Below, piece after piece: positions 2,392-29,566 of a DNA stretch of 34,309 bases. Position 1 is the first letter of the stretch. Each line of letters begins with the position of its first letter. The notes beneath the pieces are model-generated. The model was not told the DNA's origin and did no database searches. It saw nothing but the letters and a program-made list of their open reading frames with translations. Position numbers and translations under genes: made by a program. Where the stretch lies: IMG/VR virus record IMGVR_UViG_2872152978_000008. One strand, 5' to 3'. The DNA comes from a virus (Duplodnaviria > Heunggongvirae > Uroviricota > Caudoviricetes).

Positions 2392-2577
2392 TTGACCATG
2401 TTTGATTACCAAGTTTCCAAACATCCATATTTTGATGAAGCCTGTCGTGCATTTGCACTGCGCCACAATCTGGTGCAACTGGCAGAACGTGCAGGCATGA
2501 ATGTGCAGATTCTGCGGAACAAGCTGAACCCAGCTCAGCCTCATTTATTAACCGCACCAGAAATCTGGCTGCTTTGA
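2392..2577 (+). pseudogene. cII: CII-like regulator truncated after ~60 aa by IS911
   Basis: [59 protein letters not shown] resembles the N-terminus of 186 CII (~169 aa, recalled). Its TGA stop is the first three bases of the IS911 left inverted repeat. Confidence 0.65.
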
Positions 2578-2646
2578 AGTGGCACACTGAATTTGGCCAC
2601 CTGAACAGAGGTGATATGCTCACCTCAGAACAACACAGGTGCTCCA

Positions 2647-3815
<1,169 letters not shown>

Positions 3816-3857
3816 CCACTTCACGCCAGAGTTTTATTTGAGATCGCAAACAGGGAG

Positions 3858-4463
3858 GTGGCTTATTACAACATAAGGCAGGAGTTTAATTACTCAACTG
3901 AAATTACTGATTTCATGAAAGCGGTATATTTCCTGTATCTCAATCGTCACGGTTACCGTGGTTTATGTCGCTATAACAAGAGCGGGCATTTCAACATTCC
4001 CTACGGCAATTATAAAAATCCGTATTTCCCTGAAAAAGAAATTCGCGCATTTGCAGAAAAAGCCCAGCGAGCAACGTTTATCTGCGCCAGCTTTGATGAA
4101 ACGCTGGCGATGTTGAAGGCGGGGGATGTGGTGTATTGCGATCCACCGTATGACGGTACGTTTTCCGGCTATCACACTGATGGTTTCACTGAAGATGACC
4201 AGTATCACCTAGCATCCGTTCTTGAACATCGGTCATCAGAAGGACATCCGGTCATTGTTTCTAACAGTGACACATCCCTGATCCGTTCGCTGTATTGCAA
4301 TTTTACTCACCACTATATCAAGGTAAAACGCAGCATCGGTGTGGCAGCTGGCGAGGGTAAATCAGCAACAGAAATCATTGCTGTTTCCGGGCCGCGCTGC
4401 TGGGTGGGATTTGATTATTCGCGTGGCGTGGATAGTTCTGCCGTGTACGGAGTACGTGCATGA
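3858..4463 (+). pseudogene. Dam-like N6-adenine DNA methyltransferase, 5'-truncated fragment
   Basis: [35 protein letters not shown]...VVYCDPPY...HTDGF aligns by eye with the C-terminal ~2/3 of E. coli Dam (DPPY motif IV). The N-terminal AdoMet-binding region is missing; the fragment begins 34 bp after the IS911 right end. Confidence 0.75.
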
Positions 4464-5984
4464 GCCATGCCGATATGAACAACTGCTGCGGCTTTAACGA
4501 GGCTGCCGCAGCGTTCTCATGGAACAGCCCGAAAAAGGCCATTAACCCTTATCTGGACCCGGCGGAAGTTGCGCCGGTTTCTGCGCTTTCAAACCTGATC
4601 ACTCTGTACGCTGCCGATAACGAGCAGGAACAGTTGCGCCGCGAGGCACTGAGTGATCAGGTCTGGGAGCGTTATTTTTTTTATGAATCACGTGATCCTG
4701 TCCAGCACGAAATGGAGCAGGATAAGCTCATTAGCCGGGCAAAGCTGGCGCATGAGCAGCAGCGTTTTAATCCGGATATGGTCATTCTGGCGGACGTCAA
4801 CGCTCAGCCTTCCCATATCAGCAAGCCGCTGATGCAACGTATTGAATACTTCAGCAGCCTGGGCAGGCCAAAGGCTTATTCCCGCTATTTACGTGAGACG
4901 ATTAAGCCATGTCTGGAACGACTGGAGCATGTACGCGACAGCCAGCTATCTGCATCTTTTCGTTTTATGGCAAGCCATGTAGGGCTGGACGGCCTGCTGA
5001 TTCTGCCTGAAATGAGTCAGGATCAGGTGAAACGCCTGTCTACCCTTGTCGCTGCGCATATGAGCATGTGCCTTGATGCAGCTTGTGGTGATTTGTATGC
5101 CACCGATGACGTTAAGCCAGAAGAAATCCGCAAGACATGGGAAAAGGTGGCAGCGGAAACCCTGCGTCTGGATGTCATCCCGCCTGCGTTTGAGCAACTC
5201 CGTCGGAAAAGAAACCGCCGTAAACCCGTGCCCTATGAACTCATTCCGGGTTCGCTGGCGCGTATGTTGTGCGCCGACTGGTGGTACCGGAAATTATGGA
5301 AAATGCGTTGCGAATGGCGGGAAGAGCAGTTGCGTGCTGTCTGCCTGGTCAGCAAAAAAGCATCTCCCTATGTCAGCTATGAAGCCGTGATGCATAAACG
5401 TGAGCAGCGCCGCAAGTCATTGGAGTTTTTCCGTTCTCATGAACTGGTGAACGAAGAGGGCGACACGCTGGATATGGAAGACGTGGTAAACGCCAGCAGC
5501 AGCAACCCGGCGCACCGCCGCAATGAGATGATGGCCTGTGTTAAAGGTCTGGAGCTTATCGCGGAAATGCGCGGTGACTGCGCCGTTTTCTACACCATTA
5601 CCTGTCCGTCACGTTTCCATTCCACGCTCAATAACGGCAGACCAAACCCAACCTGGACAAATGCGACGGTAAGACAAAGCAGCGATTATCTGGTCGGCAT
5701 GTTTGCTGCATTTCGTAAGGCGATGCACAAAGCCGGGTTGCGCTGGTATGGCGTGCGGGTGGCTGAGCCGCATCATGACGGTACAGTTCACTGGCACCTG
5801 TTGTGTTTTATGCGCAAAAAAGACCGCCGCGCCATTACTGCATTGTTGCGTAAGTTTGCCATCCGTGAAGACCGCGAGGAACTGGGTAATAACACTGGTC
5901 CACGCTTTAAATATGAGCTGATAAACCCGCGCAAAGGAACGCCGACAAGCTACATCGCGAAATACATCAGTAAGAACATTGACG
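4460..5984 (+). pseudogene. A: Replication initiation gene A (rolling-circle nickase), N-terminal part, split by IS66-family insertion
   Basis: 513-aa ORF ending ...[12 protein letters not shown] at the IS66 junction; resembles P2/186 gpA. Confidence 0.85.
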
Positions 5985-6055
5985 GTAAGCGTACAGCCTG
6001 AACCGTCTGGTCAGAATCTGACGAATTAGACAAAGTGGTGTCCACCAAATAAGTA

Positions 6056-6457
6056 GTGGGAACCAAAGTGTCAGATATGCAGAAAAATGTGAATCCCGGC
6101 AGGCGAAAAGGCTGCCCTAATTATCCTCCCGAATTTAAACAGCAGCTCGTTGCTGCCTCCTGTGAACCCGGGATATCCATCTCAAAACTTGCTCTTGAAA
6201 ATGGCATTAACGCCAATCTGTTGTTCAAATGGCGACAACAATGGCGCGAGGGAAAGCTGCTATTACCTTCTTCAGAGAGCCCCCAGCTACTTCCTGTGAC
6301 TCTCGATGCAGCTGCCGAACAGCCAGAATCGCTCGCAGAGGATCCGGAAACCCTCAGTATCAGCTGTGAGGTAACGTTCCGGCACGGGACGCTCCGCTTC
6401 AATGGCAATGTCAGCGAAAAGCTCCTGACTCTGCTGATACAGGAACTGAAGCGATGA
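6056..6457 (+). CDS. IS66-family accessory protein TnpA (orf1)
   Basis: First of three co-oriented ORFs inside the IS; true start may be the internal Met at ~6077. Confidence 0.7.
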   Translation: MGTKVSDMQKNVNPGRRKGCPNYPPEFKQQLVAASCEPGISISKLALENGINANLLFKWRQQWREGKLLLPSSESPQLLPVTLDAAAEQPESLAEDPETLSISCEVTFRHGTLRFNGNVSEKLLTLLIQELKR

Positions 6458-6801
6458 TCCCGTTACCTTCCGGGACCAAAATTTGGCTGGTTGCCGGTAT
6501 CACCGATATGAGAAATGGCTTCAACGGCCTGGCGGCAAAGGTGCAGACGACGCTGAAAGACGATCCGATGTCAGGTCACGTTTTTATCTTCCGTGGGCGT
6601 AATGGCAGTCAGGTAAAGCTCCTCTGGTCTACCGGCGATGGACTGTGTCTGCTGACCAAACGGCTGGAGCGCGGCCGCTTCGCCTGGCCGTCAGCCCGGG
6701 ATGGCAAAGTGTTCCTCACACCGGCACAGCTGGCGATGCTCCTTGAAGGTATCGACTGGCGGCAGCCTAAAAGACTGCTTACGTCCCTGACTATGTTGTA
6801 A
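6454..6801 (+). CDS. IS66-family TnpB (orf2)
   Basis: 115-aa ORF overlapping orf1 stop by 4 nt (ATGA), typical IS66 tnpB arrangement. Confidence 0.75.
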   Translation: MIPLPSGTKIWLVAGITDMRNGFNGLAAKVQTTLKDDPMSGHVFIFRGRNGSQVKLLWSTGDGLCLLTKRLERGRFAWPSARDGKVFLTPAQLAMLLEGIDWRQPKRLLTSLTML

Positions 6802-6849
6802 GCCTCTTTATCCTGGTCGACGCTGAATGAGCCTGGTAATATACCCGGT

Positions 6850-8387
6850 ATGAGCAGCTCACTTCCTGACGATATCAATGCACTGAAACGTCTCCTTGCC
6901 GAACAGGAGGCGCTGAACCGTGCCCTGCTGGAAAAGCTGAACGAGCGTGAACGCGAAATAGACCATCTGCAGGCACAGCTGGATAAGCTGCGCCGGATGA
7001 ACTTCGGCAGCCGCTCCGAAAAAGTCTCCGTCGTATCGCACAGATGGAAGCTGACCTGAAGGCACTTCAGAAAGAAAGTGATACCCTTACCGGTCGGGTT
7101 GACGACCCGGCCGTGCAGCGCCCGCTGCGTCAAACCCGCACCCGCAAACCGTTCCCCGAATCACTCCCCCGCGATGAAAAACGGCTGCTGCCGGCAGCGT
7201 CATGCTGCCCGGAATGTGGAGGCTCACTGAGCTATCCGGGTGAGGATGCCGCCGAACAGCTGGAGTTGATGCGCAGCGTCTTCCGGGTTATCCGGACTGT
7301 ACGTGAAAAGCATGCCTGTACTCAGTGCGATGCCATCGTGCAGGCCCCCGCGCCTTCACGGCCCATCGAGCGGGGTATCGCAGGACCGGGGCTGCTGGCC
7401 CGCGTGCTGATCTCAAAGTATGCAGAGCACACCCCGCTGTACCGCCAGTCTGAAATGTACGGCCGCCAGGGCGTGGAGCTGAGTCGTTCACTGCTGTCGG
7501 GCTGGGTGGATGCATGCTGCCGGCTACTGTCACCGCTGGAAGAAGCGCTTCAGGATTATGTGCTGACTGACGGTAAGCTCCATGCTGATGACACGCCTGT
7601 CCCGGTGCTGTTGCCAGGCAATAAGAAAACGAAGACCGGGCGGTTATGGACCTACGTTCGTGACGACCGTAACGCCGGGTCAACGCTGGCGCCGGCGGTG
7701 TGGTTCGCTTACAGCCCGGACAGAAAAGGCATCCATCTGCAGACCCATCTTGCGGGGTTCAGTGGTGTACTGCAGGCGGATGCATACGCCGGGTTCAACG
7801 AGCTGTACCGGGATGGCCGGATAACGGAAGCCGCCTGTTGGGCTCACGCCCGCCGTAAAATCCACGATGTGCACGTTCGCACCCCGTCAGCCCTGACGGA
7901 GGAAGCGCTGAAACGGATCGGCGAACTGTACGCCATCGAGGCAGAGATAAGGGGAATGACGGCGGAGCAGCGCCTTGCCGAACGTCAGTTGAAAACGAAA
8001 CCGCTGCTGAAATCCCTGGAAAGCTGGCTGCGTGAAAAGATGAAAACCCTGTCGCGACACTCAGAACTGGCGAAAGCGTTCGCATACGCCCTGAACCAGT
8101 GGCCGGCGCTGACGTACTATGCAGATGATGGCTGGGCTGAGGCGGACAATAATATCGCTGAAAATGCGTTGCGGATGGTCAGTCTGGGCCGCAAAAACTA
8201 CCTGTTCTTCGGTTCGGATCATGGAGGAGAGCGGGGAGCGCTGCTGTACAGCCTGATCGGGACGTGCAAACTGAACGGAGTGGAGCCAGAAAGCTACCTC
8301 CGCTATGTACTTGACGTCATAGCCGACTGGCCGATAAACCGGGTCGGCGAACTGCTCCCCTGGCGCGTAGCACTGCCGACTGAATAA
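6850..8387 (+). pseudogene. IS66-family transposase TnpC carrying a frameshift near 7027-7035
   Basis: ORF 6850-7059 (MSSSLPDDINALKRLLAEQE...) and ORF 7044-8387 overlap in different frames. Adding one base in GTCTCCGTCGT restores a continuous reading ...[18 protein letters not shown].... Confidence 0.75.
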
Positions 8388-10068: not shown

Positions 10069-10167
10069 CGTAGATCATGCAGGTGCATGAAAACCACTAC
10101 ATAAAGCGGGCAGGTAATGCTGCCAACTTACTGATTTAGTGTATGATGGTGATTTTAAGGTGCTTGC

Positions 10168-10443
10168 GTGGCTTCCATTTCCATCAGATGTCCTTCCTGC
10201 TCCGCTACTGAAGGCGTGGTGCGTAACGGCAAAAGCACTGCCGGACATCAGCGCTATCTCTGCTCTCATTGCCGTAAAACATGGCAACTACAGTTCACTT
10301 ACACCGCCTCTCAGCCCGGTACGCACCAGAAAATCATTGATATGGCCATGAATGGCGTCGGATGTCGCGCCAGTGCACGCATTATGGGCGTTGGCCTCAA
10401 CACGGTTTTACGTCACTTAAAAAACTCAGGCCGCAGTCGGTAA
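10168..10443 (+). CDS. insA: IS1 InsA
   Basis: [42 protein letters not shown]... is the canonical IS1 InsA. Confidence 0.9.
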
Positions 10444-10865
10444 CCTCGCGCATACAACCGGGCAGTGATGTGATTGTCTGCGCTGAAATGGACGAACAGT
10501 GGGGCTACGTCGGTGCTAAATCACGTCAGCGCTGGCTGTTTTACGCGTATGACAGGATACGGAGGACGGTTGTGGCGCACGTCTTCGGTGAACGCACTCT
10601 GACCACACTGGAGCGTCTTCTGAGCCTGCTGTCGGCCTTTGAGGTCGTGGTATGGATGACGGATGGCTGGCCGCTGTATGAATCACGCCTGAAGGGAAAG
10701 CTGCACGTTATCAGCAAGCGTTACACTCAGCGCATTGAGCGACATAATCTGAATCTGAGACAACATCTGGCAAGGCTGGGACGGAAGTCACTGTCGTTCT
10801 CAAAATCGGTGGAGCTGCATGACAAGGTCATCGGGCATTATCTGAACATAAAACACTATCAGTAA
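10362..10865 (+). CDS. insB: IS1 InsB (expressed as InsAB' by -1 frameshift)
   Basis: -1 frame relative to insA; canonical IS1 InsB sequence. Confidence 0.85.
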
Positions 10866-10889
10866 GTTGGAGTCATTACCAGCGGGCAG

Positions 10890-10976: not shown

Positions 10977-12626
10977 ATGTTAGTCAAGAAAAATAAAAAT
11001 TATAGTTTATATTTTTTAATTACAAATAATCAACAGATATCTGATTCTGGTAATTATATAAAAATAGTCCCATCAAGAAGCGATTGGAATGATTTTGGAT
11101 ATTTGAGTAGAGTCGAAATATCTATTTTTAATAAAAAAGAGTGTAAGGATATAATTTCACTGAATGGTTATATTGGTTTTTTGAATTCAGAGGAGGAACG
11201 AAATGGAAAAGCAGAACTGATAAGGCGAGTGAAAAAAAAGGAAGAATCTAATTTAAAGGATGAGGGGTTTAATGATTATTTTGTCATGCTTCAGGATATG
11301 AATAATTATCGAAGACTAGTAAGATTTTTTGGGGTGAATGAATCCAAATATATATTAAATTTCATTAATGATGTTGTTTCTAAGAAAAGTGACGCTAGTG
11401 CAGAGAATTTGAGGAAAAAAGCAATCTCTTCTGATATCTTTAATAAATCTTTCATTAGAGAGTCTGAGTCGTATTTTACTTTCAAAAATGCAGGAACAGT
11501 TCTTTCCGGTATTCAATATGAGGAGTTGGGTAATTTATCACAGCACATCAAGATTAGCTATTCGAATAAAGTTAATGAAGAAGATGTATCTTATGTTTTT
11601 AATTTTGATCACGAGCATGATTTACCAAAAAGAATTTCCATAATTATAGGCGAGAATGGTGTAGGAAAAAGCCAAACGCTTAGAGAAATCGCATTGGCTG
11701 CGATTAAAGGAAAGGATAATTTGGTGGCTGTAGTTGATTCTAACGGTGTGAGCATTGAAGAACGAATTCAAATTAGTAGGCTCATTGCTTTTTCTCCAAC
11801 AAATGAAAGTAAGTGTTCATTTCCAACCGATAAAAGAATAAAATCATTGATATGGTACAAAAGATTGACTTTAAATCGTGAATCAAAATCCAAATTAAAC
11901 TTGAATGATTTAATAGTGCAACTAGCGAGGAGTAACGACGCTATCGGCTATAATCAAAGGTGGAATATATTTGTTGATGCACTGAGTGTTCTAAATAGTA
12001 ACAACGATTTAGTAATCAAATGTGGCGGTGAAAATTCACCATTTGTTAAATTAAATGAGCTTAATTCTCGAGGCGAAGAATCTAGACTATCATTATATTC
12101 TGAAATTATTCTCTCTGGCGAGCCTTTGAGGCTTATTGAAAATAAATGTTACCCTTTGAGTAGTGGGGAAATATCGTTTATTAAGTTTTGTGTACAAGTC
12201 TGTTTGTATATTGAGAATGGGACTCTTCTATTAATAGATGAGCCAGAAACACATCTCCATCCTTCATTTATTAATAAATTTATGGCATTGCTTGATAATT
12301 TATTAGAAAAGACAGGCTCTTCAGCTATCATAGCAACGCATTCGGTTTATCTTGTTCGGGAGGTTTTTAAGGAGCAAGTGACAATACTCAGAAGACGAGA
12401 TGATGGGGTAATTGTTAGCGAAAAACCGAGATTGAGTACTTTTGGGGCGAATATAGGAAATATCTCATATTTTGTTTTCGGTGAGAGTGAACCAACTCAA
12501 ATTTTAAATAAAGTAAAAAACAATATAATTGCAAAGAATATGTCTTGGGATGATGTTGAATCTAAATATAGCGAGGACTTATCACTTAATGTATTAACTG
12601 CGTTGAGAAATGAAATGGGCAATTGA
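10977..12626 (+). CDS. ABC/AAA15-type ATPase with ~220-aa N-terminal extension (PtuA-like defence ATPase candidate)
   Basis: Walker A GENGVGKSQ (~aa 226), ABC signature-like LSSGE, Walker B LLLIDEPETHLHP, H-loop ATHS. GAGAGGG SD before ATG. Very AT-rich relative to the flanking prophage. Confidence 0.75.
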   Translation: MLVKKNKNYSLYFLITNNQQISDSGNYIKIVPSRSDWNDFGYLSRVEISIFNKKECKDIISLNGYIGFLNSEEERNGKAELIRRVKKKEESNLKDEGFNDYFVMLQDMNNYRRLVRFFGVNESKYILNFINDVVSKKSDASAENLRKKAISSDIFNKSFIRESESYFTFKNAGTVLSGIQYEELGNLSQHIKISYSNKVNEEDVSYVFNFDHEHDLPKRISIIIGENGVGKSQTLREIALAAIKGKDNLVAVVDSNGVSIEERIQISRLIAFSPTNESKCSFPTDKRIKSLIWYKRLTLNRESKSKLNLNDLIVQLARSNDAIGYNQRWNIFVDALSVLNSNNDLVIKCGGENSPFVKLNELNSRGEESRLSLYSEIILSGEPLRLIENKCYPLSSGEISFIKFCVQVCLYIENGTLLLIDEPETHLHPSFINKFMALLDNLLEKTGSSAIIATHSVYLVREVFKEQVTILRRRDDGVIVSEKPRLSTFGANIGNISYFVFGESEPTQILNKVKNNIIAKNMSWDDVESKYSEDLSLNVLTALRNEMGN

Positions 12627-13491
12627 AATGAATAAATTAAAAAGACCTGTTTTTAAAGATTATTCTGCATTTAAAAAACTATCTGCAAATAAGAGATTAA
12701 AACATCATTCTGTTCTGAATGGACAGGATACATTTATACTTAATGCATATAGATCGTACATAAAGAATAAAGGGTATCTTAATGTCAATTCTTGTGGCGT
12801 ATTGAGTAACAATATTGCTGAAGCTTTGAGATATTATTATAACAATCCCGCAAAGTGTTTATCTATAATTGATGATATAAGAGCAGCTAATTCTAACTCT
12901 CTATGTCCAATGTGTGGTTCAATGCATAGCGGGACTTTGGATCATGTTTTACCCAAGGAAAACTATCCAGAATTTTCTTTATTCACTAAGAATTTGGTTC
13001 CTGCTTGCAAATGTAATACTTTCAAAAGTACTACTATAGCTAATTCTGCAGGCCATCGGATGCTGCATCCATATTTTGATAATATATTAAAACAAAGATT
13101 AATATGTGCTAATTTTTCTAAATTAGGGCGAACACCTACAATTGATGTAAAAATCATAATTGACCCAATGTCACCAGAATATAACAATGTTAAGTATCAT
13201 CTTGATAATGTTGTTATCAAGAATAATATTAAGGGGTATTTGTCTGAACAATGGGAGTCGTTTTACTTATATCCTGAGCTTGTTATTAGAGGACTGAATA
13301 AGAGTCTTTCTACTTATAGCGATGTATATGAGTTGTTGACTCGCGAGTTGTTGCTGTTGGATGAAAAACATAAAGGTAAAAATAATTGGAATTCGGTTTT
13401 TGTAGCTGGGTTAATTCGACCTGATGTGATTAGGTGGATACTCTGTGAATTACATTTAGGTAACAGAAGTCCAGACGGTCGTCTCATATGA
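12610..13491 (+). CDS. HNH endonuclease (PtuB-like defence nuclease candidate)
   Basis: CPMCGSMHSGTLDHVLPKENYPEFSLFTKNLVPACKCNTFK carries the CxxC...DH...N...CxCN HNH/zinc-finger signature. Start overlaps the ATPase stop by 17 nt (alternative ATG at 12628), suggesting translational coupling. Confidence 0.75.
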   Translation: MKWAIEMNKLKRPVFKDYSAFKKLSANKRLKHHSVLNGQDTFILNAYRSYIKNKGYLNVNSCGVLSNNIAEALRYYYNNPAKCLSIIDDIRAANSNSLCPMCGSMHSGTLDHVLPKENYPEFSLFTKNLVPACKCNTFKSTTIANSAGHRMLHPYFDNILKQRLICANFSKLGRTPTIDVKIIIDPMSPEYNNVKYHLDNVVIKNNIKGYLSEQWESFYLYPELVIRGLNKSLSTYSDVYELLTRELLLLDEKHKGKNNWNSVFVAGLIRPDVIRWILCELHLGNRSPDGRLI

Positions 13492-21357: not shown

Positions 21358-21490
21358 CGGTGATCTGAATGCGTTGCTGGATGAAACGGAGGCCGCCTGG
21401 GCGGTCTGTGCAGACAAAGTGGACATGATTATTGCGTGTCAGGAGCGAAACAGTGAACAAACCACAATCCCTGCGCCACGCCCTCAATAA
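21200..21490 (+). CDS. LysC / Rz1-like outer-membrane lipoprotein spanin, embedded out of frame in lysB
   Basis: Signal peptide with lipobox LTLSGC, Pro-rich mature part; begins inside lysB in an alternative frame. Confidence 0.6.
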   Translation: MRTRIYVAGLILLCLLTLSGCGNVRHSPEVQLTVSGCPRVTPCRLEQAAPRTNGDLNALLDETEAAWAVCADKVDMIIACQERNSEQTTIPAPRPQ

Positions 21491-21884
21491 AGCAGTGCCT
21501 TATGTCCGTAATAACCCGGACAAACTGCATCTGTTTGTGGATAACGGTTCGCTGGTTGCCTCCGGGGCTAGCTCCATGTCATGGGAGTACCGCTACACCC
21601 TGAACGTGGTGATTGAAGATTTCAGCGGCGACCAGAATCTGCTGATGGCCCCGGTTTTGCTGTGGCTGCGGGATAACCAGCCCGATGCGATCAATAACCC
21701 GGCGTTACGGGAAAAGCTATTCACCTTTGAGGTGGATATTCTGCGCAACGATGTCTGTGATATCAGCCTTAACCTGCAACTGACGGAGCGTGTGCTGGTC
21801 AGCACTGACGGCAGTGTGTCGAACGTTGAAGCGGTAGCGGAACCTGATGAACCTGAAGAAATGTGGACGGTGAAACGTGGCTGA
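21453..21884 (+). CDS. R: Tail completion protein gpR
   Basis: ~143 aa; likely GTG start at 21453 with AGGAGC SD; in the position of P2 R. Confidence 0.7.
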   Translation: MNKPQSLRHALNKAVPYVRNNPDKLHLFVDNGSLVASGASSMSWEYRYTLNVVIEDFSGDQNLLMAPVLLWLRDNQPDAINNPALREKLFTFEVDILRNDVCDISLNLQLTERVLVSTDGSVSNVEAVAEPDEPEEMWTVKRG

Positions 21885-22278
21885 ATTGCAGAAGGTGGAC
21901 GACTGGCTGAGTGCATTATTGGCGAATCTGGAGCCAGCCGCAAGAAGCCGCATGATGCGCCAGCTGGCGCAGGAACTGCGCCGGACACAGCAGCAGAACA
22001 TCAGGATGCAGCGCAATCCAGATGGCAGCAGTTATGAGCCGCGCAGGGTAACAGCACGCAGCAAAAAGGGGCGCATCAAACGTCAGATGTTTACAAAGCT
22101 GCGCACCACAAAATACCTGAAAACTGCAGCCAGCGCCGATTCTGCCAGCGTACAGTTTGAAGGTAGGGTGCAGCGCATTGCCCGTATTCACCATTACGGC
22201 TTGAGTGATCGCGTCAGTCGAAAAGGTATTTATACCATCTATGCGAAAAGGCAGTTATTAGGTTTTAATGTCCGGTAA
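21877..22278 (+). pseudogene. S: Tail completion protein gpS, 3'-truncated by IS1
   Basis: ORF runs into the IS1 left end and stops on a TAA inside the IS1 terminus (...RQLLGFNVR*). Confidence 0.7.
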
Positions 22279-22328
22279 TGCTGCCAACTTACTGATTTAG
22301 TGTATGATGGTGATTTTAAGGTGCTTGC

Positions 22329-22604
22329 GTGGCTTCCATTTCCATCAGATGTCCTTCCTGCTCCGCTACTGAAGGCGTGGTGCGTAACGGCAAAAGCACT
22401 GCCGGACATCAGCGCTATCTCTGCTCTCATTGCCGTAAAACATGGCAACTACAGTTCACTTACACCGCCTCTCAGCCCGGTACGCACCAGAAAATCATTG
22501 ATATGGCCATGAATGGCGTCGGATGTCGCGCCAGTGCACGCATTATGGGCGTTGGCCTCAACACGGTTTTACGTCACTTAAAAAACTCAGGCCGCAGTCG
22601 GTAA
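22329..22604 (+). CDS. insA: IS1 InsA (copy 2)
   Basis: Identical translation to copy 1 InsA. Confidence 0.9.
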
Positions 22605-23026
22605 CCTCGCGCATACAACCGGGCAGTGATGTGATTGTCTGCGCTGAAATGGACGAACAGTGGGGCTACGTCGGTGCTAAATCACGTCAGCGCTGGCTGT
22701 TTTACGCGTATGACAGGATACGGAGGACGGTTGTGGCGCACGTCTTCGGTGAACGCACTCTGGCCACACTGGAGCGTCTTCTGAGCCTGCTGTCGGCCTT
22801 TGAGGTCGTGGTATGGATGACGGATGGCTGGCCGCTGTATGAATCACGCCTGAAGGGAAAGCTGCACGTTATCAGCAAGCGTTACACTCAGCGCATTGAG
22901 CGACATAATCTGAATCTGAGACAACATCTGGCAAGGCTGGGACGGAAGTCACTGTCGTTCTCAAAATCGGTGGAGCTGCATGACAAGGTCATCGGGCATT
23001 ATCTGAACATAAAACACTATCAGTAA
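22523..23026 (+). CDS. insB: IS1 InsB (copy 2)
   Basis: As copy 1, with a T-to-A substitution (TLTTLERL to TLATLERL). Confidence 0.85.
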
Positions 23027-23036
23027 GTTGGCAGCA

Positions 23037-23519
23037 TTACCATGCAGCCCTCACAATATAGTTAAAAGCGACATTTCGTGGGCGTGTTTCATTCGCACCT
23101 GCAGGTTTAGTCGTTGCCGCAACAACACCACCCTCTGTAATAGCCGGGTTGGGAATTGGGTAATTATCGAAGTCAATGGCCGGAGACAGGGGCGTGATTT
23201 GTTTTAAAATCGTGGTGCCTGTAAAACTTTCCAGAGTCTGGTCGTTAGTTCGTGAAGTCCAGATTCCCCAATAGTGGTTATGACTGACAATCGCACCGTC
23301 CTGAAGCGTTAATAATCCCCTTCCGTTATCCACTCCACGTCCGTCATCCCAGCCACGAATAAACTCACCGCGTAAATCAGGCAATTTATTTGTCGGGTAA
23401 GCCTTTGCCAGTTCCGGGTATTCTTCAGCAGAAAAAGCCGCACCATTGCATTTCAGCCAGCCTGTCGGCGGAGTGGCTGAAGGCCACGGAACAGGCACAC
23501 CAACAGGTAATGCAGAGCC
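23037..23519 (-). pseudogene. Orphan tail-fibre variable C-terminal segment, clipped by IS1
   Basis: ...GWLKCNGAAFSAEEYPELAKAYP...NVAFNYIVRAAW is a typical tail-fibre C-terminal variable domain. It has no constant N-terminal part, lies inverted next to an invertase, and its 3' end runs into IS1. Confidence 0.6.
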
Positions 23520-23545
23520 TTCTCCCAAACCAACGTTTAAGAAAA
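23520..23545. other. Candidate 26-bp invertase crossover site (gix/cix/pix-like) TTCTCCCAAACCAACGTTTAAGAAAA
   Basis: Imperfect dyad resembling recalled Hin/Gin/Cin recombination sites, located at the 5' end of the inverted fibre segment and 55 bp upstream of the invertase gene. Confidence 0.45.
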
Positions 23546-23600
23546 TGCAGAGATAATGGCTAACTGGCATCATCCCCGGTTTTTATTCAGGGGATTGATC

Positions 23601-24167
23601 ATGCTTATTGGCTATGTACGCGTGTCAACAAATGACCAGAACACCGATTTGCAACGTAATGCACTGAACTGCGCGGGATGTGAGCGGATTTTTGAGGATA
23701 AAATCAGTGGCACTAAGCCCGACAGACCGGGGCTTAAAAAACTGCTCAGGACACTATCGGCAGGAGACACGCTGGTTGTCTGGAAGCTGGACAGACTGGG
23801 ACGCAGTATGCGGCATCTTGTTACGCTGATAGAAGAGTTGCGCCAGCGTGGTGTGAATTTCCGAAGCCTGACTGACAGTATTGATACCAGTACCCCAATG
23901 GGCCGTTTCTTTTTTCACGTCATGGGGGCTCTGGCTGAAATGGAACGTGAACTGATAGTTGAACGTACCAGAGCAGGGCTGGCTGCAGCTCGTGCCAAAG
24001 GCAGAGTAGGTGGACTCCGTCCTAAGTTGACCACCGAACAGTGGGCACAGATTGGACGTTTACTCGAGGCCGGAGAATCAAGACAGCGTATTGCACTGAT
24101 TTTTGATGTGGGCGTTTCTACCATTTATAGAAAATTTCCGGCGAATGAGAGCAATGAATCGCCCTGA
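23601..24167 (+). CDS. Serine DNA invertase (Hin/Gin/Pin/Cin family)
   Basis: MLIGYVRVSTNDQNTDLQRNAL...GDTLVVWKLDRLGRSMRHL... is the N-terminal resolvase catalytic domain with the active-site Ser in VRVSTNDQ; C-terminal HTH. Confidence 0.85.
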   Translation: MLIGYVRVSTNDQNTDLQRNALNCAGCERIFEDKISGTKPDRPGLKKLLRTLSAGDTLVVWKLDRLGRSMRHLVTLIEELRQRGVNFRSLTDSIDTSTPMGRFFFHVMGALAEMERELIVERTRAGLAAARAKGRVGGLRPKLTTEQWAQIGRLLEAGESRQRIALIFDVGVSTIYRKFPANESNESP

Positions 24168-24309: not shown

Positions 24310-25481
24310 ATGGCTCAGGATTACCACCACGGGGTGCGCGTTGTTGAAGTCAACGAAGGCACCCGATCCATTACCACGGTGAGCACCGCCATCGTGGGTA
24401 TGGTCTGCACGGGCGATGATGCCGATGCAAAAATGTTTCCTCTTAATAAACCTGTGCTGATCACTGATGTGCTGACCGCCAGCGGTAAAGCGGGTGAGTC
24501 TGGCACGCTGGCCCGTTCGCTGGATGCCATCGCTGACCAGGCAAAACCCGTGACCGTTGTTGTGCGTGTGCCGCAGGGTGAAACGGAAGAAGAAACCACA
24601 ACCAATATCATTGGCGCAGTGACCGCCGAGGGTAAAAAAACAGGTATGAAAGCCCTGTTATCTGCCCAGTCACAGCTCGGCGTTAAACCGCGCATTCTCG
24701 GCGTGCCAGGTCACGACACGAAGGCGGTAGCTACTGAGTTGCTGAGCGTGGCGCAAAGCCTGCGTGGATTTGCTTACCTGTCAGCGTATGGTTGCAAGAC
24801 GGTGCAGGAAGCAATCACTTACCGTGAAAACTTCAGTCAGCGTGAAGGAATGCTGATCTGGCCCGACTTTACTGGCTGGGACACGGTGCTGAATGCCGAA
24901 GCAACGGCTTATGCCACCGCCCGTGCGCTCGGTCTGCGCGCTAAAATTGATGAGCAGACCGGATGGCACAAAAGCCTGTCCAACGTGGGCGTGAACGGTG
25001 TCACCGGAATTTCTGCTGATGTGTTCTGGGATCTGCAGAACCCGGCAACCGATGCAGGTCTGCTTAACCAGAACGATATCACCACGCTTATCCGCAAAGA
25101 CGGTTTCCGCTTCTGGGTTCCCGCTGTCTGAGCGATGATCCGCTCTTTGCCTTCGAAAACTACACCCGCACGGCGCAGGTGCTGATGGACACGATGGCAG
25201 AAGCGCACATGTGGGCGGTGGACAAACCGCTGAACCCGTCGCTGGCCCGCGACATTATCGAAGGTATCCGCGCCAAAATGCGTAGCCTGGTCAGTCAGGG
25301 CTATCTCATTGGTGGTGATTGCTGGCTGGACGAGTCGGTGAACGATAAAGACACGCTGAAAGCCGGGAAACTCACCATCGATTACGACTACACGCCAGTG
25401 CCGCCACTTGAAAACCTGATGCTGCGTCAGCGCATCACCGATCAGTACCTGGTGAATTTCTCCAGCCAGGTCAGCGCGTAA
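24310..25481 (+). pseudogene. FI: Tail sheath protein FI with a -1 frameshift in the G-run at 25115-25117
   Basis: ORF 24310-25131 ends ...[10 protein letters not shown]. Inserting one G restores ...[35 protein letters not shown]..., which joins ORF 25179-25481. Confidence 0.85.
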
Positions 25482-26489: not shown

Positions 26490-29400
26490 ATGAGTGACAA
26501 TAACCTGCGTCTGCAGGTGATTCTTAATGCGGTTGACAAACTCACCCGCCCATTTCGATCCGCGCAGGCCAGTTCAAGAGAACTGGCTGCTGCTGTCAAA
26601 AAATCCCGCGATGCAATAAAGCAGCTTGATCAGGCCGGGAGCAGTCTGGACAGCTTCCGAAAGCTGCAGGCAGAAAATCAGAAATTAGGCGACAGGCTGA
26701 ACTATGCCCGCCAGCGTGCAAATTTGCTCAGTCAGGAACTGGGAGCGATGGGGCCGCCTTCGCAACGTCAGGTTGTTGCTCTGGGCCGTCAACGGCTGGC
26801 TGTTCAGCGCCTGGAAGAACGCCAGAAAAAGCTGCAGCAGCAGACGGCGCTTGTGCGTGCAGAACTTTATCGTGCTGGTATTTCAGCTAATGATGGCGCC
26901 AGTGCGACGGCCCGCATTACCCGTGAAACGATGCGTTATAACAGGCAGCTTTCTGAGCAGGAAGCGAGGTTACGACGTGTCGGGGAGCAACAGCGAAAAA
27001 TGCACGCCGCCCGGGGGCTTACGCCAGGCGTCTTGAGGTAAGGGATCGTATTGCAGGTGCCGGAGCCACCACCACGGCTGCAGGGCTGGCAATGGGCGCA
27101 CCAGTGATGGCGGCAGTAAAAAGCTATACCAGCATGGAAGATGCCATGAAAGGTGTGGCAAAGCAGGTCAATGGTCTGCGTGACGATAATGGCAACCGCA
27201 CTGCGCGTTTTTACGAAATGCAGGGTGCCATCAAGGCTGCCAGCGAACAGTTGCCGATGGAAAACGGTGCTGTGGACTTCGCCGCACTGGTTGAAGGTGG
27301 TGCGCGCATGAACGTCGCAAACCCTGACGACAGCTGGGAAGACCAGAAACGTGACCTGCTGGCCTTCGCCAGCACGGCGGCAAAGGCGGCAACAGCCTTT
27401 GAACTGCCAGCGGATGAACTGTCAGAAAGTCTGGGGAAAATCGCCCAGCTCTACAAAATCCCTACCCGCAATATTGAGCAGCTCGGTGATGCGCTGAACT
27501 ATCTGGATGATAACGCCATGTCGAAAGGGGCGGACATCATTGATGTCATGCAACGCCTGGGCGGTGTGGCTGACCGTCTGGATTATCGTAAAGCGGCGGC
27601 GCTGGGTTCCACCTTCCTGACACTCGGCGCTGCGCCTGAGGTTGCAGCCAGTGCAGCAAACGCGATGGTGCGTGAATTGTCCATTGCCACCATGCAAAGC
27701 AAGAGTTTCTTTGAAGGGATGAATCTGCTGAAACTCAATCCAGAAGTGATTGAAAAGCAGATGACGAAGGATGCGATGGGAACTATCCAGCGGGTGCTGG
27801 AGAAGGTGAATGCGCTGCCACAGGATAAGCGCCTGTCTGCCATGACCATGTTGTTTGGTAAAGAGTTTGGCGATGACGCAGCGAAACTGGCAAACAACCT
27901 GCCGGAACTTCAGCGCCAGTTAAAACTGACTGCGGGCAATGATGCGCTCGGTTCCATGCAGAAAGAATCCGACATCAACAAGGATTCACTTTCTGCTCAG
28001 TGGTTGCTGGTCAAAACCGGAGCACAGAACACCTTCAGCAGCCTGGGGGAAACGCTGCGCCAGCCGCTGATGGATATTCTGTACACGGTGAAAAGCGTCA
28101 CGGGGGCGTTGCGTCGCTGGGTGGAAGCTAACCCGGAACTGACGGGCACTCTGATGAAAGTAGCCGCTGTGGTAGCTGCCGTTACCGTGGGCCTCGGCAC
28201 CTTAGCGGTGGCGCTGGCTGCAGTGCTGGGGCCGCTGGCAGTCATCCGTCTGGGATTCTCTGTGCTGGGTATCAAAACGTTACCTTCCGTTACGGCAGCA
28301 GTAACCCGAACCAGCAACGCGTTGTCCTGGCTGGCTGGCGCACCACTGGCACTGCTGCGACGCGGGCTTGCTTCATCGGGCAACGCTGCAGGTTTACTTA
28401 CTGCGCCGTTGTCGTCTTTGCGCCGCACGGCATCACTGACGGGAAATGTCCTGAAAACTGTAGCAGGTGCGCCGGTTGCACTTTTGCGGTCTGGATTATC
28501 CGGTTTACGTGCGGTTGCTGTGATGTTTATGAATCCACTGGCGGTACTACGCGGCGGACTGGCTGCCACAGGCACGGTGCTGCGTATGCTCGCATCCGGT
28601 CCACTGGCGATGCTGCGCGTTGCCCTGTATGCCGTCTCTGGTCTGTTAGGTGCTCTGCTCAGTCTGATAGGTCTTGTGGTTACTGCACTGGCGGGTGTGG
28701 CGCTGGTTGTCTGGAAATACTGGCAGCCCATCACCACATTTCTCGGTGGCGTGGTGGAAGGATTCAAAGCGGCGGCAGGTCCTGTCAGTGCCGCGTTCGA
28801 ACCGCTTAAGCCTGTGTTCCAGTGGATTGGCGACAAAGTACAGGCGCTGTGGGGCTGGTTTACTGATCTGCTGACGCCCGTTAAGTCGACCTCTGCCGAA
28901 CTGCAGAGTGCAGCGGCAATGGGGCGACGATTCGGGGAGGCTCTGGCGGAAGGGCTGAATATGGTCATGCATCCGCTGGACTCCCTGAAATCCGGCGTTT
29001 CCTGGTTGCTGGAGAAACTTGGCATTGTCAGTAAAGAGGCCGCAAAGGCGAAACTGCCGGAAAGCGTGACGCGTCAGCAACCTGCGACGGTGAATGCAGA
29101 CGGTAAAGTGATGATGCCATCGGGTGGTTTTCCGTCATGGGGATATGGCTTTGCGGGGATGTATGACAGCGGCGGGTATATCCCGCGCGGGCAGTTTGGC
29201 ATCGTCGGTGAAAACGGGCCGGAAATTGTTAACGGCCCGGCAAATGTGACCAGCCGGAGAAATACAGCTGCACTGGCTGCCGTTGTTGCCGGAATGATGG
29301 GTGTTGCTGCTACGCCAGCAGAGCTTCCACCGTTGCACCCTTTGGCACTTCCCGCGAAAGGCGGTGAAGCGATGGTGAGTCGTGCAGCCACTGTGCCGCC

Positions 29401-29566
29401 CGTTCAACGGATTGAGGCACCGATGCAGATCATCATTCAAACGCAGCCAGGACAAAGTGCGCAGGATATTGCGCGGGAGGTGGCCCGCCAGCTTGATGAA
29501 CGTGAACGCAGGCTGAAGGCAAAAGCCAGGAGTAACTACAGCGATCAGGGGGGATACGACGCATGA
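26490..29566 (+). pseudogene. T: Tape measure protein gpT with a frameshift in the G-run at 27013-27017
   Basis: ORF 26490-27041 and ORF 27092-29566 are in different frames. Adding one G gives ...AARGAYARRLEVRDRIAGAGATTTAAGLAMGAPVMAAVK..., continuous. Ala/Leu-rich repetitive C-terminal part typical of tape measure. Confidence 0.8.

Follow-up and report, generated by a model that had tools for sequence, protein, structure and literature searches.

Does the short region in which a DNA invertase gene, a candidate crossover site and a tail-fibre fragment lie side by side still serve as a host-range switch, or is it what a switch has left behind? The window analysed here, a stretch of 34,309 nucleotides from a Caudoviricetes virus record (IMGVR_UViG_2872152978_000008), carries these elements at positions 23037-24167, and a preliminary description made from the letters alone had read them as the right-hand half of a switch like the G segment of Mu. 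Our analysis indicates, with a probability of roughly 0.85, that the region is a fixed, non-invertible right-hand relic of a Pin/Gin-type tail-fibre host-range switch in a P2-like prophage. New beyond the preliminary description are the IS1 junction, the extent of the loss, the orthology to the e14 P-pin system within a P2-like backbone, and the R139L allele of the invertase. The features of the locus, in window coordinates, are the following.

21432-21884, left of gene S: homologue of P2 gpR
21877-22273, plus strand: homologue of P2 gene S (virion morphogenesis), cut at about codon 132 by IS1
22274-23041, plus strand: IS1, 768 bp, with the Pfam domains InsA and DDE_Tnp_IS1
23042-23533, minus strand: tail-fibre C-terminal cassette of the StfE / Mu Sv' type, with a Collar domain
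23520-23545, strand not given: right-hand crossover site, 26 bp, core at 23532-23533
23546-23600, plus strand: spacer between the crossover site and the invertase start, read from the sequence and the ATCC 8739 alignment
23601-24167, plus strand: Din-family serine DNA invertase, 188 aa, full length
23622-23685, within the invertase 5′ end: candidate Fis-dependent recombinational enhancer
24015-24017, plus strand: codon 139 of the invertase, CTC (Leu), Arg in relatives
Starting at 24310, right of the invertase: P2-type tail sheath gene

The element that hosts the region is a P2-like (Peduoviridae) prophage, not a lambdoid one. Its late genes from X to ogr are present at 91-100% identity to the prophage of E. 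coli ATCC 8739 (~80% for lysB and the N-terminal part of T), and they follow the P2-like order X-holin-lysozyme-lysB-R-S-[V W J I H G]-FI-FII-E-T-U-D-ogr, minus V-W-J-I-H-tfa. Searches by tblastn with V, W, J, I, H, tfa and tfaE of ATCC 8739 returned zero matches anywhere in the window, while residues 1-130 of the 154-residue S protein of ATCC 8739 were matched. Likewise, the Pfam profile Phage_tail_S is covered by the truncated S from position 2 to 132 of 148, and the open reading frame of gene S extends to 22278, its final codon and stop being built with IS1 bases. The window also holds IS3- and IS66-family elements beside two IS1 copies.

The invertase gene truly starts at the ATG at 23601, inside a longer open reading frame of 23556-24167, and an AGGGGA ribosome-binding site lies at 23589-23594. 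Its 188-aa product matched the Pfam profiles Resolvase (2.8e-53) and HTH_7 (1.3e-13), and it aligned without gaps to the Mu Gin structures 3UJ3 and 4M6F over residues 1-184 (E 2.5e-91), with the catalytic Ser9 present; no NCBIfam model reached its cut-off for either the invertase or the cassette. The protein is 97.9% identical to the invertases of ATCC 8739 and of the record ‘Klebsiella phage KP12’ (KP12 below), 85% to that of S164, 84% to PinE, 77% to Cin and 73% to Gin, and its invertase cluster comprises 2365 member sequences. Judged by its domains, its length, Ser9 and the adjoining 26-bp site, the gene product is assigned to the Din family (Hin/Gin/Cin/Pin), as the preliminary description had proposed. 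An origin from a Mu-like element was considered and rejected, the backbone being P2-like and the invertase nearer to PinE.

The 26-mer TTCTCCCAAACCAACGTTTAAGAAAA occurs once in the window, at 23520-23545; the invertase ATG follows 55 bp downstream, and on the minus strand the 26-mer falls within the 5′ end of an open reading frame of 178 aa. It is built of two 12-bp half-sites around a 2-bp core at 23532-23533, TTCTCCCAAACC-AA-CGTTTAAGAAAA, and 8 of the 12 half-site positions are symmetric about the central AA, which agrees with the imperfect dyad noticed earlier in front of the invertase. Alignment to the known sites, as the preliminary description had suggested, gave 25/26 identity to the published pixR (TTCTCCCAAACC AA CGTTTATGAAAA; Table 3 of PMC3241671), with the left half-site and the AA core the same as in pixL and pixR, and a family match to hix, gix and cix. 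The window site matches the dix consensus no worse than pixR, and it equals the right-hand site of KP12 in 26/26 positions. It is overlapped by a 16-nt sequence, CCTTCTCCCAAACCAA, at 23518-23533, and this repeat is the place where inversion of the e14 P segment was mapped experimentally (PMC12529663). Chance resemblance was rejected, since intact switches have base-for-base orthologues of the site and of both genes.

A single site was found. Exact and mismatch searches, a scan with the Din consensus and an inverted-repeat search revealed no partner site on either strand of the 34.3 kb, and further copies of the 26-mer at up to 3 mismatches were absent from the window (0.00 expected by chance). 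The Din-consensus scan detected one site in the window and two each in e14, ATCC 8739 and KP12, and on Mu it recovered exactly the annotated gixL and gixR. The second copy, the partner fibre segment and the chaperone, which had been named as the things to look for, are thus all lacking in the window. One site alone leaves no segment to invert, and therefore the switch is dead.

The fibre fragment is encoded by the 178-aa reading frame at 23037-23573 on the minus strand, which has a Phage Tail Collar domain (9e-16) and lacks the constant N-terminal part; the window likewise lacks any match to H. The fragment is a fibre C-terminal domain without its constant part, as first described. Both of its ends are non-native. 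The first ~13 codons fall outside the invertible segment and begin at a spurious ATG at 23573 in the spacer, and the stop codon (23037-23039) together with the last residue, W, comes from IS1 and not from the phage gene. The native TAA was cut after its first base by IS1, and on the minus strand …GCA TAA TG… now reads …GCA T/GG TAA, the slash marking the IS1 boundary, which changes the protein end from …IVRAA-stop to …IVRAAW-stop. In the native gene the cassette stop overlaps the start of tfa′, and here tfa′ is lost from its first base. The cassette proper, counted from the crossover-site core up to where its native codons end, has about 163 codons; its identity is 97.7% to ATCC 8739, 98.7% to pro483 ORF34 and 58% to StfE of e14, and its counterpart in ATCC 8739 is a ‘phage tail protein’ between tfaE and the invertase. 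In no relative examined was the cassette seen as a complete, non-invertible gene. These ends also explain the 178-aa ‘phage tail protein’ of many Shigella assemblies, which is an orphan cassette with non-native ends.

How the cassette was once used can be read from the intact relatives. In the ATCC 8739 prophage, which sits at the same chromosomal site as the window prophage, beside ybjL, and in pro483, KP12, S164 and ENT90, the order is H – tfa – tfa′ – cassette – invertase – sheath. The two sites of ATCC 8739 form an inverted repeat 1831 bp apart, bounding a segment of ~1.85 kb, and the left site lies inside the fibre gene H. The reading frame crosses the site, and H and the cassette both read …GLGE… there. 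When the segment of ATCC 8739 was inverted in silico at the core dinucleotides, the 473-aa H became an open 513-aa protein ending in …NYIVRAA, and joining the constant part of ATCC 8739 in silico to the window cassette likewise gave an open frame of 514 aa. Outside the sites ATCC 8739 and KP12 run collinear (95.6-96.4%), the stretch between the sites is inverted, and the breakpoints fall at the 26-mers; the 26-mers are therefore real strand-exchange points in this P2-like prophage family. Sequencing reads have also shown inversion directly, both for P2-like prophages and for e14 (PMC4272514). The relatives thus show the cassette as the second tip in a two-site segment of ~1.85 kb, and the reading of the region as the right-hand half of a G-segment-like switch is upheld.

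These comparisons suggest how the ancestor was arranged. The prophage with the switch would have been of the P2-like kind (Peduoviridae), integrated beside ybjL in a Shigella lineage, with an H gene carrying the left site where the constant part meets the variable tip. Downstream of H there would have been tfa, then tfa′ and a second tip cassette on the opposite strand, the right site and the invertase gene. Fis, bound to an enhancer in the invertase 5′ end, would have helped to flip the ~1.85-kb segment, with either tip fused in frame to the constant part. One cassette, one crossover site and the invertase are what remains of it. The preliminary description had further supposed a mosaic ancestor because classical P2 lacks a switch. 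The premise holds for P2 itself, whose order H – G – fun(Z) – FI was checked and includes no invertase, but the supposition understates how common the switch is among P2-like phages: it is a regular feature of a large P2-like branch, including Peduovirus pro483 and S164 as well as ENT90.

The left border of the relic is an IS1 copy. This IS1 is complete, with insA at 22329-22604, an insB frame at 22523-23026 and identical 23-bp terminal inverted repeats (GGTAATGCTGCCAACTTACTGAT). No target-site duplication was found at its ends (22274-23041), where the 9-bp flanks differ (TTAATGTCC / ATGCAGCCC), and the other IS1 of the window, at 10115-10882, provided an internal control with an 8/9-bp duplication, AGCGGGCA(G). 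Because the duplication is absent, the fibre-side IS1 marks a rearrangement endpoint and not a simple insertion. Homology to all intact relatives starts exactly at 23042, immediately behind IS1. Measured on ATCC 8739, the gap spans ~6.6 kb, of which 1.5 kb is an ATPase gene specific to that strain, and what was lost is the 3′ end of S, V-W-J-I-H, both chaperone genes and the left crossover site. An IS1-associated rearrangement, most simply an adjacent deletion, would have taken everything from about codon 132 of S to the second base of the cassette stop; recombination between two IS1 copies would be another simple reading.

The same junction could in principle have come about by IS1-mediated inversion or transposition, with the left half surviving elsewhere in the genome next to another IS1, so that the distant sites could flip a large chromosomal interval. 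The missing target duplication fits inversion as well as deletion, and with two IS1 copies and the IS3- and IS66-family elements in the window, IS-driven rearrangement is frequent here. However, no missing gene was found within the 34-kb window, the IS1/cassette junction had no exact match in a one-genome-per-species collection, and a deletion would be the simpler event. For hin, moreover, the enhancer is described as naturally close to one hix, and by analogy a far partner may be used with low efficiency. We regard a surviving left half as very unlikely, and deletion rather than inversion is the simplest reading of the junction.

The lesion is not peculiar to this record. The same junction, the same site and the same invertase DNA recur at no fewer than eight loci of independent NCBI assemblies named Shigella, with 0-1 differences in 587 bp and an identical invertase. 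The chimeric 178-aa protein with the IS1-derived W was found in 46 blocks of the assembly collection; 201 contigs carry the invertase protein and 46 the cassette protein, and in the sources these proteins are named ‘Shigella dysenteriae’ or ‘MULTISPECIES: Shigella’. The window is also 100% identical to CP026840.1 over 20.5 kb. Since the same junction and allele recur across the assemblies and in CP026840.1, the lesion is real and fixed in a Shigella lineage, and the locus shows how IS1 dismantles prophages in Shigella.

Could the 178-aa frame nevertheless have been kept for a function of its own? It might be expressed alone from the outside ATG and serve the host, for example by masking a phage receptor, as has been proposed for StfE2 of e14. 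The frame is open and identical in many assemblies, and it is the positional equivalent of e14 stfE, which after inversion gives StfE2 through an outside start (PMC12529663). Yet the non-inverted StfE was not protective in the e14 study (PMC12529663), and the start and stop of the window frame are by-products of the site flank and of IS1. Promoter-like and terminator matches around the site were no better and no commoner than in shuffled sequence, and the C-terminal chaperone gene is deleted. The cassette appears to have no promoter of its own and, with neither an N-terminus nor a chaperone, is unable to make a fibre. A function for the lone frame is accordingly barely plausible.

The 5′ end of the invertase gene may have retained a regulatory element. 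Two 15-mers of the form G-N13-C, at 23622-23636 (GTGTCAACAAATGAC) and 23671-23685 (GCGCGGGATGTGAGC), have centres 49 bp apart, the first lies ~97 bp from the crossover core, and G1 and C15 of both are kept in gin, cin and pinE. Synonymous-codon conservation was computed over six diverged invertase genes, and identical-codon use at conserved residues was 0.5-0.73 in codons 1-40 vs 0.32-0.45 in the 3′ half. As published, the hin enhancer consists of a pair of Fis sites at ~100 bp from hix, separated by a stretch that holds ATTTA/TAATG; in position and in its intervening A/T motifs, GATTTG…GTAATG, the window fits this description. From these features we infer a candidate Fis-dependent enhancer inside the invertase 5′ end.

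Whether the invertase itself is still active is bound up with one codon. Relative to ATCC 8739 and KP12, the gene has 20-21 synonymous and 4 non-synonymous codon differences, and its protein carries both S40P and R139L. Ser9 and every other conserved residue are kept, R139L aside, and given the intact reading frame, the conserved residues and the mainly synonymous changes, the gene may not be a pseudogene. R139L is a single-base change, CGC to CTC, at a codon that is CGC, CGT, CGA or AGA (Arg) in relatives. Position 139 is Arg in 120/120 of the nearest 90%-cluster representatives, and it is the only site at which the window residue was found in 0/120 while at least 90% agree on another residue. 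It is also Arg in 78 of 79 loci of other species, the exception being a Cys in a protein that matches residues 1-155 only, which brings the count to 198/199 homologues in total.

Leu139 aligns with Arg139 of Gin, Arg140 of Hin and Arg142 of γδ resolvase, the arginine of the DNA-binding arm, which follows Gly-Gly; in the homologues this arm lies along the minor groove, at the site's centre. In Hin, Gly139-Arg140 is reportedly required for hix binding. R142 is among the side chains displayed in a figure of the 1GDT arm–DNA complex (PMC3241657). An alanine scan of the Gin arm, made with zinc-finger fusions that no longer had the native DNA-binding domain, did not place Arg139 among the residues with a >100-fold drop in recombination upon their loss (PMC3985619). 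Because R139L hits an otherwise invariant arginine of the minor-groove arm, the invertase of the window is probably weakened or inactive. The naturally occurring R139L allele is a test case for what the arm arginine does in Din invertases.

If the invertase does retain activity, action on another prophage's segment is the only route by which the gene could still matter, and this raises the question of whether it was retained for acting in trans on Din-type segments of other prophages in the genome. Din invertases are interchangeable, and the action of cryptic-prophage invertases on another prophage's segment is documented for PinQ and PinR, on the P segment of e14, and for Fin of Fels-2, on the H segment of Salmonella (PMC12529663). 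The reading frame is full length and identical in the eight assemblies and on the 201 contigs, Ser9 and the candidate enhancer are intact, and the differences from relatives are mostly synonymous. Against this, R139L lies at a residue that is Arg in all but one of the 199 homologues, and the identity across assemblies reflects recent common descent only, not selection. Retention for action in trans is hence unlikely.

A more specific version would be that the stranded invertase, in spite of R139L or even on account of it, recognises Din-type sites at other places in the Shigella chromosome and flips the fibre segment of a different prophage; it would have been domesticated by the host to regulate a protein that masks a receptor or acts against phages, with PinQ and e14 StfE2 as the precedent. 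We consider this very improbable. We would give similarly little weight to the corresponding idea that the remaining site and the embedded enhancer persist as the regulatory region of the invertase only. Were the invertase to act in trans, the locus would be a Shigella example of the recently proposed recombinase-controlled anti-phage mechanism. Taken as a relic, the locus is a decayed copy of a well-known system and a case of ordinary prophage decay in Shigella, and its significance beyond the annotation of a switch remnant is small.

Invertase loci of other species were surveyed for partner sites. An earlier consensus-score scan of 79 such loci missed many proximal sites, because the outer half-sites are degenerate, and a consensus-free inverted-repeat search with controls was used for the partner sites. 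The survey was rough and took only loci with enough upstream DNA (n=50); a partner repeat lies 1.3-3.6 kb upstream in ~32 of them, and 16 lack one by the search's own criterion. Since these 16 of the 50 loci have no partner repeat, stranded invertases are not rare.

Comparison with the known systems sets out what the window shares with each of them. The G segment with Gin of Mu and the C segment with Cin of P1 follow the same logic, a constant part, two alternative tips together with their chaperones, and an invertase located beyond the right end, and their invertases are 73-77% identical to that of the window over the full length, with a site of the same family. They differ in that the core is AA in the window vs GA in gix, in that the cassettes are mostly unrelated, and in the phage backbone. 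PinQ and PinR of Qin and Rac, and Fels-2 Fin, the named invertase of the P2-like switch group, likewise reside in defective prophages; for the window invertase a substrate could only be elsewhere in the genome. PinQ, which shares only 38% identity with PinE, is demonstrably active, whereas the window allele has a substitution at an invariant DNA-binding residue.

The closest kin are the P2-like invertible segments of ATCC 8739, pro483, KP12, S164 and ENT90, with a 97-99% identical cassette, site and invertase, and in these the switch lies between the fibre genes and the sheath gene FI, as in the window. The relatives are intact, with two sites and both orientations represented, whereas the window copy has lost S′-V-W-J-I-H-tfa-tfa′ and the left site. 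Among the named systems, the nearest is the P segment with pin of e14 (stfP-tfaP / tfaE-stfE / pinE) in E. coli K-12, rather than the G segment with gin of Mu. The element of the window is P2-like and not lambdoid, its invertase has R139L, and it represents the right third only, whereas in e14 the two sites, the two chaperones and the constant part all survive and inversion still takes place. The cassette reading frame has the same length as e14 stfE (537 bp), although only 58% identical to StfE. Cassette, right site and invertase nevertheless stand in the same order and on the same strands in the two elements, with 84% identity of the invertases, 25/26 identity of the site to pixR, and CCTTCTCCCAAACCAA common to both.

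A second complete IS1 copy in the window was used as the internal control for the IS1 copy at the fibre remnant. It lies in the same orientation as that copy and carries a target duplication on both sides, and is a simple insertion:

10115-10882, complete IS1, second copy, flanked on both sides by the 8/9-bp target duplication AGCGGGCA(G).

Across the right end of the IS1 at the fibre remnant and into the first bases of the orphan fibre cassette, a promoter-like match directed towards the invertase was found:

23028-23057, plus strand, TTGGCA-18-CACAAT.

The number of such matches was no higher than in shuffled sequence.

Breakage also affects the early part of the prophage:

430-1209, integrase ORF, with its match confined to the N-terminal integrase domain.
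2611-3815, IS3-family element with an rve domain, adjoining the CI-type repressor.
6056-8387, IS66-family element with a 447-aa transposase (7044-8387), following replication gene A.

Within the IS66-family element the scan covered the transposase, which is preceded by two short ORFs at 6056-6801.

Two tail genes of the window are split by frameshifts:

24310-25481, sheath gene, split into 273 and 100 aa.
26490-29566, tape-measure gene, split into 183 and 824 aa.

Among the eight Shigella assemblies compared, these splits were found only in CP026840.1 (L008), which is identical to the window. The sheath gene was unbroken in the other seven, and the tape measure in these was intact in three, split at another place in two and not called in the remaining two. 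Other assemblies have breaks that differ from those of the window. The sheath and tape-measure splits of the window are probably indel errors of assembly and not real lesions.

In the intact relative, the E. coli ATCC 8739 prophage (L001), a gene for a 'P-loop ATPase, Sll1717 family' (2526-4037) is inserted between S and V, and the S-V interval that holds it is the one missing from the window. The fibre segment of OM835953.1 (L004) is in the opposite orientation to that of ATCC 8739, and its fused fibre gene is apparently interrupted (6007-7275, then 7317-7559). This record is named 'Klebsiella phage KP12 clone KP12_3' and classified under Vequintavirinae; its gene content is that of a P2-like element, and it differs little from prophages of E. 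coli, to which it is nearly identical.

At 23 of the 79 invertase loci from other species (including L017, L023, L024, L029, L031, L035, L040, L043, L044, L048, L049 and others), the contig breaks off 60-270 bp upstream of where the invertase begins, either at the crossover site or beside it. Such a break is expected when the culture that was sequenced holds a mixture of both orientations. L033 and L034, from E. coli ECMA0423 and S. flexneri SFBU1023, carry an 83%-identical invertase; no recognisable crossover site was found upstream of it in either locus (about 5860-6000), and a 17-C homopolymer run (TTCTCCCCCCCCCCCCCCCCCGAC) occupies its place in both.

The window carries a candidate defence cassette, with the replication region on one side of it and the portal gene on the other:

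10977-13491, two overlapping genes, for an AAA_21 ATPase (549 aa) and a protein of 293 aa.

The two proteins match A and B of the PADLOC candidate defence system PDC-M01 (3e-55 and 1e-33, respectively), with weaker PtuA/AriA-like matches also obtained, and the cassette occupies the place of old/tin in P2.
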